A stretch of DNA of 64,000 nt. Origin: a virus. How positions within the stretch are numbered: position 1 is the first letter of the stretch; every line of letters starts with the position of its first letter. Below the pieces are notes generated by a model. That model worked only from the letters and a program-made list of their open reading frames with translations. It had not been told where the DNA came from and searched no databases. Shown one piece after another: positions 4,523 through 24,951 of the stretch. The DNA lies in the IMG/VR virus record IMGVR_UViG_3300028840_007197, positions 1 to 64,000 of that record; one strand, 5' to 3'. The translations under genes and the position numbers were made by a program.

Positions 4523-5173
4523 ATGAAAAAAAGACCATTAAACTCCAAGAAGATTATCGTTGATGCCTTGAAACATCACCATACGATGTCCAGAGCTGCA
4601 AGGCACCTGGGAGTCACTCGAATGGCCGTTTCCTATGCCGTGCAGCGCTTCAATATTCCTTATGATGCTGAAGCGGCACGACTGAAAGTTCTGTTCGATA
4701 AAAAACTGAATAAACAACGTGACGCGCTTATCCTCAAAAAAGCCCTACAAGGCAAGTCCGTAACTGATATCTCTTCTGAGGTCGCGTGCCCTTATCATGT
4801 CGTTTCAACGGTATTAAGAAGAGAGCGCCTATTCATCACCGACCGTAAAAACATGGCATATCTTAAAATATATCAGCTTTATCTTAAAGGATTAAAAATA
4901 AAAGACATATCGGATAGTATTGGGATGGAATTTACGAGTGTGCCTCGAATTATACGGATCCTTTTCTTTGGTGACGGACTCAGAAGAGGACAGCACCGCC
5001 GTTATCTCAATAAGGAAATGGTGCTAAAGTGTTCATGTAAAAAGAAGCTAACAGAGCCTCTCAGCGTTACAAGGACATACTATCTCAAGACAGGTAACGG
5101 TGGGCCTGATTGGATGGGAAGATACAGACGCCAAGACGGATATTTTACTCCCAGAGGTTTACCTGCGGGATAG
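4523..5173 (+). CDS. Multi-helix-turn-helix DNA-binding protein
   Basis: Three HTH-like segments (TMSRAARHLGVTRMAV; GKSVTDISSEVAC; GLKIKDISDSIGM); basic protein. Confidence 0.65.
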   Translation: MKKRPLNSKKIIVDALKHHHTMSRAARHLGVTRMAVSYAVQRFNIPYDAEAARLKVLFDKKLNKQRDALILKKALQGKSVTDISSEVACPYHVVSTVLRRERLFITDRKNMAYLKIYQLYLKGLKIKDISDSIGMEFTSVPRIIRILFFGDGLRRGQHRRYLNKEMVLKCSCKKKLTEPLSVTRTYYLKTGNGGPDWMGRYRRQDGYFTPRGLPAG

Positions 5174-5267
5174 TACTCCGGCATTCAAATAGAAAAAATC
5201 TAATGACGTGAGTCTGAACTGAGTTACCAAGATAGAGTGTACCGCATTCAATAAGAAAGAATTCTAC

Positions 5268-6071
5268 ATGACTTCACGTATTCGGTCTGTCCTGAAATGG
5301 CCCGGTGGAAAATTCCGGATGCTCGATGCTATCCTTGAAATGCTGCCGACAGGAAAGAGGCTCGTCGAACCTTTCGCCGGGGGTGGGGCTCTTTTCCTGA
5401 ACTCCCAATTCAAATCTTATCTCATAAACGACATCAACCAGGATCTGATTTCCTTCTATAATGCCGTCAAAACGGGCGGTACGGCGTTTATAGAAGCATG
5501 TAAGTCATGCTTCAGCGAAGAAAACAACAACAAGGATAAGTTTTTCCAGTTAAGAGACCTGTTCAATAAAGGAAATCCCAGGCCACCCGAACTATTTTTG
5601 TATCTCAATCGACATGGCTTCAACGGCTTATGCAGATACAACCAGAAGGAAGAATTCAATGTTCCCTTCGGAGATTATGAAAAGCCCTATTTCCCTGAGA
5701 TGGAGCTGAAGTATCTCTATAAGCTCAGTAAAAAGGTACGCTTCACCTGCAATGATTTCAGGATAACCTTTAAAAATCTCAGACCGGGTGATGTCGTGTA
5801 CTGCGATCCGCCTTTTCTTCCTCTTTCACCGACATCGAACTTCACGTCATTCTCGGCGGGAGGATTCACTATTGATGACCAGATAGACCTTGCACATAGG
5901 GCCGAAACGGCCCCTGTACCGGTACTTATTTCTAATCATGATGTACCTATGGCAAGAGACATATTCTCAAAGGCCACGGTCATCAATTCAGTTCCTTGTA
6001 GGCGCTCTATCGCTGCGAGTGGAAACTCCAGGGGTAAGGTCAATGAGCTCTTAGCCTTATATGCAAAGTAG
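5268..6071 (+). CDS. dam: Dam-family DNA adenine methyltransferase
   Basis: LKWPGGK, EPFAGGGA, FLYLNRHGFNGLCRYN..FNVPFG, DVVYCDPPF and SNHD motifs. Confidence 0.93.
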   Translation: MTSRIRSVLKWPGGKFRMLDAILEMLPTGKRLVEPFAGGGALFLNSQFKSYLINDINQDLISFYNAVKTGGTAFIEACKSCFSEENNNKDKFFQLRDLFNKGNPRPPELFLYLNRHGFNGLCRYNQKEEFNVPFGDYEKPYFPEMELKYLYKLSKKVRFTCNDFRITFKNLRPGDVVYCDPPFLPLSPTSNFTSFSAGGFTIDDQIDLAHRAETAPVPVLISNHDVPMARDIFSKATVINSVPCRRSIAASGNSRGKVNELLALYAK

Positions 6072-6283: not shown

Positions 6284-6505
6284 ATGGTTAAGGTCGTTGA
6301 AGGAGTAGAGGGTTACTGGCACTATCATCTATCTGAGACAGGTATCTCGGGGCATCCGGCTCTATGTGGTAATAAAAGGGTCATGCATACCGAGATACCT
6401 CTCTCGACTTGGGGTAAAAAGAGCCATCTGAACGAAAAGTATTGTTTGGAGTGCGAGAAGAAAGCTGGTTCGAAGTGTCCTTCAAGTACCAGGTCCAACG
6501 GCTAA
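6284..6505 (+). CDS. Small putative Zn-binding hypothetical protein
   Basis: MVKVVEGVEGYWHYH...ALCG...YCLEC; start reassigned from the track's 6221. Confidence 0.6.
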   Translation: MVKVVEGVEGYWHYHLSETGISGHPALCGNKRVMHTEIPLSTWGKKSHLNEKYCLECEKKAGSKCPSSTRSNG

Positions 6506-7824
6506 ACCCTCATGAGATGATCCTCGAAAGAGGAGTAAAGAAGCCTATAAGGGCCTTTATGAATGAGGCCTTATATGAGGCTTCTGAAGAGGAAATGTGG
6601 CGTCAGGCTGCCTGGGCCACAACCATACCCTCTGTCGAGTCCGTCGTCATAACTCCTGATGCCCATGCAGGAGCTGGGGTACCAATCGGTCTAGTGGTTG
6701 CTACCAAAGACTATGTCGCCCCTTGTGCAGCAGGGTACGATATATCCTGCGGCATGCTTTCTATGCGTACAAGCCTCATTGCTGAGAACATAAAGGATAA
6801 AATCATCAGGCGTTCCTGGATGCAGGAAGTGGAAAGCCGAGTGGCCTGCGGTTTAGGGGGTCATCGTGTAGACGGTCAGATCAGAATCAATGGTAATCTC
6901 TTTGAGGAGATACTTCAAAATGGTATACTGGCTCTTGATGCCCCCCAGAATATTCGAGGTCGCTTCGAACGAACACATCATATAGTGAAGAGATATGTTC
7001 GATTTAAGAAAGCGGCAGACCGTGGAATGCCCGAGCTGGCCAGTCTGGGGTCTGGAAACCATTTCCTTGAACTCCAACAGGACCAGAAAGGAACCGTATG
7101 GATTATGATCCACACGGGGTCTCGTGGATATGGGCACCAGGTAGCAACCGAATTCTTCAACAGAGGCTTTGAGTGGTGGAACCAAAGTCACCCCAACGAG
7201 ATACTCGGAAAAGGTCAGAAGGAACTCGTTTCCTTTCCAGTGGATTCTGAGATCGGTCAGGACTATCTCAATGCCATGAATCAGGCTGCTAACTACGCCA
7301 TAGTGAACAGATACCTCATCGCTAAAGCAGTAATAGAGGCCACGGAGAAGGTATTTAAGAGCACCCCGGAGATACTCTATGAAATAAGCCACAACCTCGT
7401 TCAATACGAGGGTGGCCTCTGGGTACATAGAAAGGGTGCCACAAGGGCCCTACCGGCCGGTCATGAGCTTCTTAAGGGATCTATTTTTGAGACCACCGGT
7501 CACCCTGTTCTGATTCCAGGCAGCATGGGTACTTCATCTGCTATTCTTACTCCAAAGGATAGCGAAAAATCCCTGCACAGCGTTAACCATGGCTGTGGAA
7601 GGGTAATGTCTCGCGGTCGGGCAAAACGGACTTTTGCCCAGGATGTCCTGAATAAAGAGATGGACGACATGGATATCCTCTATAACAGCAGGAATGTTCC
7701 TATTGATGAGTCCTTGCACTGTTATAAGGATATCGATGAGGTCCTCTCTACCGTTGAGGGAGCAGAACTTGCGATTACGGATATAAGGCTCTATCCAAGA
7801 GCCGTTATCAAGGGGGAGAGTTGA
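6475..7824 (+). CDS. rtcB: RtcB family RNA 3'-phosphate/5'-OH ligase
   Basis: PDAHAG, GYDISCG, SLGSGNHFLE, HTGSRGYG, SHN, HRKGAT, IPGSMG, HGCGRVMSR and YKDIDEV motifs; GTG 6475 is the likely start (track gives 6442). Confidence 0.95.
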   Translation: MSFKYQVQRLNPHEMILERGVKKPIRAFMNEALYEASEEEMWRQAAWATTIPSVESVVITPDAHAGAGVPIGLVVATKDYVAPCAAGYDISCGMLSMRTSLIAENIKDKIIRRSWMQEVESRVACGLGGHRVDGQIRINGNLFEEILQNGILALDAPQNIRGRFERTHHIVKRYVRFKKAADRGMPELASLGSGNHFLELQQDQKGTVWIMIHTGSRGYGHQVATEFFNRGFEWWNQSHPNEILGKGQKELVSFPVDSEIGQDYLNAMNQAANYAIVNRYLIAKAVIEATEKVFKSTPEILYEISHNLVQYEGGLWVHRKGATRALPAGHELLKGSIFETTGHPVLIPGSMGTSSAILTPKDSEKSLHSVNHGCGRVMSRGRAKRTFAQDVLNKEMDDMDILYNSRNVPIDESLHCYKDIDEVLSTVEGAELAITDIRLYPRAVIKGES

Positions 7825-24633: not shown

Positions 24634-24914
24634 GGGTGGTCGACCGGAGTCGAACCGGCAAGGCATGATTAGGTCTCCTTATTATCGGCACAGGACTTCC
24701 TGCCGCTGTTTACAAACCCTCCTGGACCGTTACCGGATTCCAGGCAGCGTATCAGTGTCTTCCGCAAGCCGTAGAGGCCACTCCACAATCGCTACCCGCC
24801 CGCTTCCCTTTGTTTCGTTCCACAGACTTCCACGACCACGGGGTTCATGCCGGGTGATAAGCCCTCTCCCAATCCTGTTTGTCGGGCGCTCTCGCCAATT
24901 GAGCTACGACCACC
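24634..24914 (-). ncRNA. tRNA-His-like scaffold with ~205-nt structured expansion replacing the anticodon arm
   Basis: G-1, acceptor GTGGTCG/CGACCAC, C73, D-arm GCTC/GAGC and T-arm GCCGG-TTCGACT-CCGGT are all intact; 227 nt lie between G26 and the T-stem. Confidence 0.75.
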
Positions 24915-24951
24915 ATAATACATGATATCAGTATTTCAAAGAACATTAAAG

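Follow-up and report, generated by a model that had tools for sequence, protein, structure and literature searches.

A tRNA-His-shaped gene with a 203-nt insert in its variable loop, located in the tRNA array of a giant marine phage

Results

The tRNA array and its surroundings

The window analysed here comprises the first 64,000 nucleotides of a 94.9-kb IMG/VR contig (IMGVR_UViG_3300028840_007197) that is rated 20% complete and is thus a fragment of a very large phage. Its source is a giant marine phage, whose DNA polymerase matches cultured phages only at 33% identity or less. The gap between two tRNA-Gln genes of this phage holds a 281-nt element with the overall shape of a tRNA-His gene (24634-24914, minus strand; RNA position p lies at window coordinate 24915 - p), recognized both by sequence reading and by a tRNA-frame finder. 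All genes surrounding it also lie on the minus strand. A gene for a VWA-domain protein stands directly upstream of the tRNA array, and this gene and the Pro and Gln tRNAs together span 27401-24549. ARAGORN and Rfam agree on tRNA-Pro(UGG) at 25404-25326, tRNA-Pro(CGG) at 25315-25238, tRNA-Gln(UUG) at 25024-24951 and tRNA-Gln(CUG) at 24624-24549, all on the minus strand; the true tRNAs beside the element have a GC content of 55-59%. The element begins 36 nt after the first tRNA-Gln and ends 9 nt before the second. An RtcB ligase gene is located at 6442-7824.

Upstream of the array lies a short open reading frame, MKLTIRQPQPQPGYNTRGTCV (25645-25580, minus strand), which encodes a leader peptide whose Gln/Pro run is written CAG-CCC-CAA-CCG-CAG-CCA, with one codon for each type of downstream Gln or Pro tRNA and CAG used twice. 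This frame is preceded by a sigma-70-like promoter (25681-25653, 10 of 12 matches) and followed by an 11-bp terminator with a T run (25552-25527), an arrangement compatible with an attenuator. In one related phage (L002), a terminator-like hairpin likewise stands immediately before the tRNA array, with CAGCCAGGAG ahead of the hairpin. The leader peptide contains codons for all five Gln/Pro tRNAs and no His codon, which fits a non-decoding element and is a small supporting point for it.

The first gene of the array (25511-25412, minus strand) is a remodelled tRNA-Pro(GGG). It retains its acceptor ends, its CCA and an intact anticodon arm (CCGGA-AUGGGGC-UUUGG), has about 40 additional nucleotides in the D loop, and is missing the T arm; the additional GUGGGGAUU could form pairs with GAAUCCCC, which lies close to the 3' end. 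Unlike this gene, its counterparts in relatives L002 and L006 are ordinary tRNAs.

A complete tRNA-His frame

The RNA opens with G-1 (at 24914) and the 5' acceptor strand GUGGUCG (together 24907-24914, minus strand), which forms seven of seven Watson-Crick pairs with 24642-24636, while G-1 pairs with the discriminator C73 (at 24635) that follows the 3' acceptor strand CGACCAC (together 24635-24642, minus strand). The 3'-terminal CCA is incompletely encoded, the letters being C, C and then U. The D arm, GCUC-AAUUGGCGA-GAGC (24888-24904, minus strand), includes A14, G18, G19 and A21, and the T arm, GCCGG-UUCGACU-CCGGU (24643-24659, minus strand), has a GCCGG stem of a kind known in bacterial tRNA-His genes; both arms were found by reading and by the frame finder. 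U8, A9 and G26 are all present, and 227 nt separate G26 from the T stem. This minus-strand reading bears out what the original prediction had said of the acceptor stem, the G-1:C73 pair, the D and T arms and the 227-nt distance. All 21 stem pairs of the frame hold, and the tertiary nucleotides U8, A14, G18, G19, A21 and G26 and the T-loop UUCGA are kept. Of the usual tRNA tertiary pairs, both G26/A44 and A15/U48 are possible in the element.

A strict frame finder, which demands a 7/7 acceptor stem, a 5/5 T stem, the T-loop motif, a D stem and GG in the D loop, returned only the four true tRNAs and the element from the whole 94.9-kb contig, which places the frame far beyond chance. As a positive control, the finder also picked out a genuine tmRNA in a distant phage (L005). 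That gene, at 4914-5338 of a 192,957-base IMG/VR contig rated complete, is a phage-encoded tmRNA by Rfam (RF00023, 113 bits, E 2.8e-45). Neither ARAGORN nor the Rfam tRNA model RF00005 makes a call on the element, which nonetheless bears the G-1:C73 pair on a 7-bp acceptor stem that identifies tRNA-His. Judged from its sequence, the tRNA-His frame is real and the gene is of tRNA-His origin.

The insert lies in the variable loop, and the anticodon stem is retained

To align the element with bacterial tRNA-His genes sharing its 5' frame, we used its 5' start (G-1 plus GUGGUCG) as the search anchor; 120 stretches matched, 80 were returned as loci and 51 could be parsed arm by arm. The discriminator is C in 51 of these 51 genes, and their variable loop reads RGGUY, with AGGUU in 4 of the 51. 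A typical gene runs GAGC-G-CCGGA-CUGUGGC-UCCGG-AGGUU-GCGGG-UUCGAUU; in the alignment the element runs GAGC-G-CCCGA-CAAACAGGA-UUGGG-AGA-[203 nt]-UU-GCCGG-UUCGACU. The original prediction had found no partner for CCCGA and had the whole anticodon arm replaced by a structured domain. Neither claim holds, because UUGGG, 9 nt downstream, closes the stem through pairs C-G, C-G, C-G, G.U and A-U, in agreement with the bacterial alignment and with ARAGORN after removal of the insert. The retained stem and its 9-nt loop CAAACAGGA occupy 24868-24886 (minus strand).

By this alignment, positions 46 and 47 of the variable loop are separated by the large insert. The 5' part of the loop is AGA (positions 44-46; 24865-24867, minus strand) and the 3' part UU (positions 47-48; 24660-24661, minus strand), whose U48 can form the established tertiary pair with A15; between them lies a GC-rich insert of 203 nt (24662-24864, minus strand; borders uncertain by 1-2 nt). 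In place of the 4-5 nt of a class I variable loop, the element thus has about 203 nt splitting AGA from UU. In silico deletion of these 203 nt leaves 78 nt, which ARAGORN folds into a clean cloverleaf whose variable loop has 5 nt. The program labels this product 'Cys(aca)' only because it imposes a loop of 7 nt, AAACAGG, in which position 33 is A. The actual 9-nt loop has neither U33 nor GUG, and so differs from the 7-nt YU-GUG-RN loop of a decoding tRNA-His. With no anticodon in its normal setting, the loop as read here is not able to decode His codons.

The 6-mer AAACAG of the 9-nt loop (24880-24875, RNA positions 35-40) recurs in the insert (24711-24706, RNA positions 204-209), where it adjoins GUUUGU (RNA positions 198-203), the complement of ACAAAC on the loop's 5' side (RNA positions 33-38). 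A loop-to-domain pairing of 5-6 bp is therefore possible, and it lies within chance by our estimate. The insert also repeats the 8-mer GUGGUCGU of the 5' acceptor strand (24839-24832, RNA positions 76-83). This copy could compete for the 3' acceptor strand CGACCAC, and may represent chance, the trace of a duplication, or an alternative pairing.

Composition, folding and motifs of the insert

The insert has a GC content of 55-58% in 200-nt windows, compared with about 40-45% around it and about 43% in the phage as a whole. The minimum-free-energy fold of the whole RNA (-101.7 kcal/mol) retains the tRNA body and the anticodon-type hairpin, and closes the inserted domain with a 7-bp helix between GGCAUGA (24845-24851, minus strand) and UCAUGCC (24662-24668, minus strand). 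A 9-bp hairpin, CCUGGA-AU-CCG-GUAA-CGG-UCCAGG, with an AU bulge and a GUAA tetraloop of the GNRA type (24721-24744, minus strand), appears in both the minimum-free-energy and the centroid folds, and a further hairpin, GGCAGG-AAGU-CC(UG)UGCC, is predicted at 24687-24704 (minus strand). By a rough estimate, the all-Watson-Crick closing helix and the GNRA hairpin should each be unlikely by chance, at about 0.01-0.02. These two features and the GC content are all that suggest a folded RNA. Against shuffled sequence the folding energy is unremarkable, with z-scores of -0.48 (whole element) and -1.10 (domain); relative stability is similar for the opposite strand, which scores z -1.51 against its own shuffles. 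The helix originally claimed to pair the ends of the insert forms 9 of 10 pairs, costs about 7 kcal/mol relative to the fold with GGCAUGA/UCAUGCC, and is within chance by estimate.

The smaller motifs listed in the original prediction are all present, namely the GNRA hairpin, the CAGG-AAGU-CCUG hairpin, five GUGG words, two His-like heptamers, and AAGGAG-8 nt-AUG, but the weight placed on some of them does not survive. GTGG occurs 5 times against 2.1 expected (p 0.04, uncorrected) and is not significant; GGA occurs 11 times against 7.5 expected, and no word enrichment survives correction for multiple testing. The His-like heptamers, by sequence reading, do not lie in hairpin loops. We accordingly rejected both a decoy built on GUGG words and His heptamers and a CsrA sponge built on GGA motifs, as the word counts are within chance. 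A hammerhead core seen by eye was rejected for having CUGAUAC instead of CUGANGA. The insert contains an AUG...UAG frame of 18 codons on the minus strand, and an 86-codon open reading frame on the plus strand (24665-24925) was rejected as a gene, being R/S-rich and without a match in Pfam or by tblastn.

Known RNA families and splicing

The Infernal/Rfam and ARAGORN runs proposed with the original prediction returned nothing over the element at the gathering score (Rfam) or at default thresholds (ARAGORN). At E<=10 the only Rfam match was a spurious one to YrlA, a bacterial Y RNA (RF02553; 23.8 bits against a gathering score of 69), which joins the T arm of the element to the D arm of the next tRNA-Gln and is thus an artefact of tandem tRNAs. 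The group I intron model (RF00028) gave no match at E<=10, and here the insert lies in the variable loop and the rejoined exons rebuild a cloverleaf with no anticodon. Group II introns and self-cleaving ribozyme families likewise gave no Rfam match at E<=10.

Allowing introns in ARAGORN produced nothing at default thresholds and only low-quality artefacts at lowered ones. When all 864 single deletions were passed through the program, it accepted 612 of them, with many different anticodons; the test does not discriminate, because the other arms dominate the ARAGORN score. The deletion solutions labelled 'His(gtg)' have a 3-bp stem and a pyrimidine, C, at position 37, and no single excision restores a His-decoding tRNA with a 5-bp stem and a YUGUGRN loop.

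Relatives of the element and of its neighbourhood

The proposed homology search for the insert, carried out here by blastn and by pattern scans of IMG/VR, yielded no relative. Against 50,697 cultured-phage records including T4, blastn of the insert gave nothing but a chance match of 21 nt. Five patterns, exact or degenerate, found no relative in IMG/VR, their one match (L040) falling by chance inside a coding region. The VWA gene provided a second route, with protein relatives at 40-53% identity and no tblastn match among cultured phages. The closest protein relatives are on Logan contigs, where P0005 is 89% identical to the VWA gene product and P0003 is 74% identical to that of a 149-aa gene lying just downstream. 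We fetched 4 IMG/VR and 33 metagenome loci encoding a VWA relative, and blastn of the element against all fetched loci, a DNA search of four related IMG/VR records, and the frame finder with ARAGORN over nearly the whole length of three related contigs (G001-G003) revealed no homologue and no tRNA-framed RNA with an insert.

The succession of a VWA gene and Pro/Gln tRNAs recurs in six of these loci (L002, L006, L008, L010, L015 and L016), whose VWA proteins are 43-51% identical, and the His-type frame is absent from all six. In the two whose inter-tRNA gaps were read (L006 and L015), the gaps are protein-coding. Some relatives have protein genes interspersed among their tRNAs; in L015, for instance, Pro(CGG) and Pro(UGG) are separated by a reading frame some 450 codons long.

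Discussion

A gene that keeps every arm of a tRNA-His, with a loop that lacks the anticodon and a 203-nt insertion in the variable loop, has two main readings, a carrier RNA that does not decode or a tRNA gene that broke recently, and we found no relative that decides between them. At roughly even confidence, we favor the reading that it specifies a non-decoding, possibly histidine-chargeable, tRNA-shaped carrier or mimic RNA that would be cut from the tRNA transcript. We propose that a tRNA-His was rebuilt at two places, its anticodon loop becoming a 9-nt loop and its variable loop a 203-nt domain closed by a 7-bp helix. The spacing of 36 and 9 nt inside the array suggests that the element would be co-transcribed with the neighboring tRNA-Gln genes and released by the enzymes that mature them, with RNase P and 3' trimming freeing a discrete RNA of about 280 nt. 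Its 8-bp, G-1:C73 acceptor end should cause RNase P to leave G-1 in place, as in bacterial tRNA-His, and a CCA-adding enzyme would finish the CCA. HisRS depends mainly on G-1:C73, and since this pair is intact, charging with histidine may be possible. The tRNA body would then be either a shell for processing and stability or a mimic of a tRNA, and the actual work would fall to the 203-nt domain. The most natural guess is that it acts as a decoy or sponge for a tRNA-binding factor of the phage or its host.

Three further considerations count in favor of a carrier or mimic RNA. Of all sites in a tRNA, the variable loop alone lets a long arm project without breaking the L shape, as class II tRNAs illustrate (PMC7609411). 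The GC content of the insert is close to that of the neighboring tRNAs. The known cases of rnaC and rnaD in T4 show that the tRNA cluster of a phage can include stable RNAs that do not decode, and by analogy the same may hold here. Of the three interpretations offered in the original prediction, a tRNA scaffold with a cargo RNA is thus the one that survives, as our preferred but tentative reading; a tmRNA-like RNA is unsupported, and an intron religated by the phage RtcB is weak.

The same anatomy might instead be that of a recently disrupted tRNA-His pseudogene, in which foreign or scrambled GC-rich DNA entered the variable loop, a complex indel altered the anticodon loop, and the RNA is still made and trimmed between the tRNAs without having a function. 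We regard such a pseudogene as the main alternative, credible if somewhat improbable. The element is a singleton: it has no homologue and is absent from the fetched relatives with VWA and Pro/Gln tRNAs, an absence that speaks for recent breakage and at the same time deprives a carrier RNA of support from conservation or covariation. Folding tells the same way: global z-scores within chance on both strands and the lack of any significant motif favor a pseudogene, and a fold no better than that of shuffled sequence, with no motif enrichment after correction, counts against a working domain. A pseudogene would also agree with two independent lesions in a single gene, with an array whose leader peptide lacks a His codon, and with the presence of another aberrant tRNA-like gene in the same array (25511-25412), which could reflect relaxed selection on the array as a whole. 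What a pseudogene explains poorly is the distribution of the changes. Neutral decay should spread evenly, yet the 21 stem pairs and the tertiary nucleotides are intact while the anticodon loop is heavily changed; damage confined to that loop, with the other 70 nt free of disruptive change, appears unlike neutral decay. Also against a pseudogene are the tRNA-like GC of the insert, its perfect 7-bp closing helix and its GNRA hairpin, and phage genomes usually purge dead DNA.

Two readings that would restore a conventional role to the gene fare much worse. In an intron-bearing tRNA, self-splicing or nucleases would excise the segment and the phage RtcB would rejoin the halves into a working tRNA. 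RtcB is indeed encoded in the window, although its presence alone proves nothing, excision of the insert does leave a canonical 78-nt cloverleaf with a 5-nt variable loop, and tRNA introns have been reported in Lak megaphages (PMC6784885). Set against this, no group I, group II or self-cleaving ribozyme family matches at E<=10, ARAGORN's intron mode is silent at default thresholds, and the insertion site is the variable loop rather than the anticodon loop. Even after splicing, the loop would be AAACAGG or CAAACAGGA, with neither U33 nor GUG, and the alternatives that do bear GUG have 3-bp stems and a pyrimidine at position 37, so that no single excision gives a 7-nt YUGUGRN loop. We therefore consider an intron highly improbable. 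A histidine-charged, tmRNA-like rescue RNA, which would enter stalled ribosomes with a tag frame, has at first sight a similar topology, with tRNA ends around a large domain, and an 18-codon AUG...UAG frame in the insert could be taken for the tag. This idea is essentially refuted, and we give it next to no credence: the Rfam tmRNA models are silent at E<=10 where the genuine L005 tmRNA scores 113 bits, ARAGORN finds no tmRNA at 80% thresholds, pair 3:70 is G-C and not G.U, the D arm and anticodon stem are complete where a tmRNA has a reduced D arm, the domain leaves from the variable loop, and there is neither a pseudoknot series nor a frame with a degradation-tag-like ending.

If the element does function as a carrier or mimic RNA, it would mean that phages can use the tRNA variable loop, in addition to the anticodon arm, as a docking site for a large RNA domain, and would provide a natural instance of the tRNA scaffold, an idea otherwise known from engineering. 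It would also add a distinct architecture to the poorly understood non-decoding tRNA-shaped RNAs of large phages, of which T4 rnaC and rnaD are the founding examples. The boldest form of this proposal, which we put forward tentatively and think doubtful, is that it represents a new kind of phage RNA, a His-chargeable, non-decoding tRNA shell whose variable loop presents a working domain of 200 nt. In that case the machinery of tRNA maturation would cut out, CCA-cap and stabilize an RNA whose role is to bind or decoy some factor of the host or the phage, candidates being a tRNA-targeting defence nuclease, HisRS, or another reader of the tRNA body. If the gene is a pseudogene, it is ordinary, a mere curiosity of one phage lineage.

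In the literature searched, we found no description of a large insert in the variable loop of a tRNA-shaped RNA, and the element is best placed by comparison with several partial counterparts. With canonical bacterial tRNA-His(GUG) it shares an alignable G-1:C73 pair, acceptor stem, D arm, anticodon stem, variable-loop flanks and T arm, and it differs in its 9-nt loop without U33 or GUG, its 203-nt variable-loop insert, and its failure to be called by tRNA detectors. Class II tRNAs (Leu, Ser, Tyr, Sec) have an extra helix that leaves the variable loop at the same place, between position 45/46 and 48; their variable arms measure about 10-25 nt and sit on decoding tRNAs. This site tolerates extensions without breaking the L shape, and known variable arms are given as little more than 10 nt (PMC7609411). 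The arm of the element is about ten times longer, multi-branched, and attached to a non-decoding frame. tmRNA (RF00023) resembles it in placing tRNA-like ends around a large structured domain and in being phage-borne, as in L005, and is set apart by its exit point, whereas the element has a full D arm and anticodon stem, no G3.U70, no tag frame and no model match. The 'enigmatic' tRNA introns of Lak megaphages are also inserts in tRNA genes of very large phages outside the known intron classes (Devoto et al. 2019, PMC6784885), and in the alignment given there, Lak tRNA genes with and without an intron differ only by the insert (PMC6784885). In contrast, no excision from the element restores a decoding tRNA.

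The closest described things are the stable RNAs of T4, species 1 and 2 (rnaC and rnaD; NC_000866 70908-71171), which like the element are non-decoding RNAs in a phage tRNA cluster. To our knowledge, their function is still not known. They have no sequence similarity to the element (by blastn, the 21-nt chance match only), yet rnaC ends in a T-arm-like hairpin, CCGGG-UUCGAAU-CCCGG, just as the element has a tRNA-like T arm and acceptor end. The two T4 RNAs are 119-139 nt long and, on a quick reading, have no obvious full cloverleaf, whereas the element keeps every arm of a tRNA-His and adds 203 nt to it.
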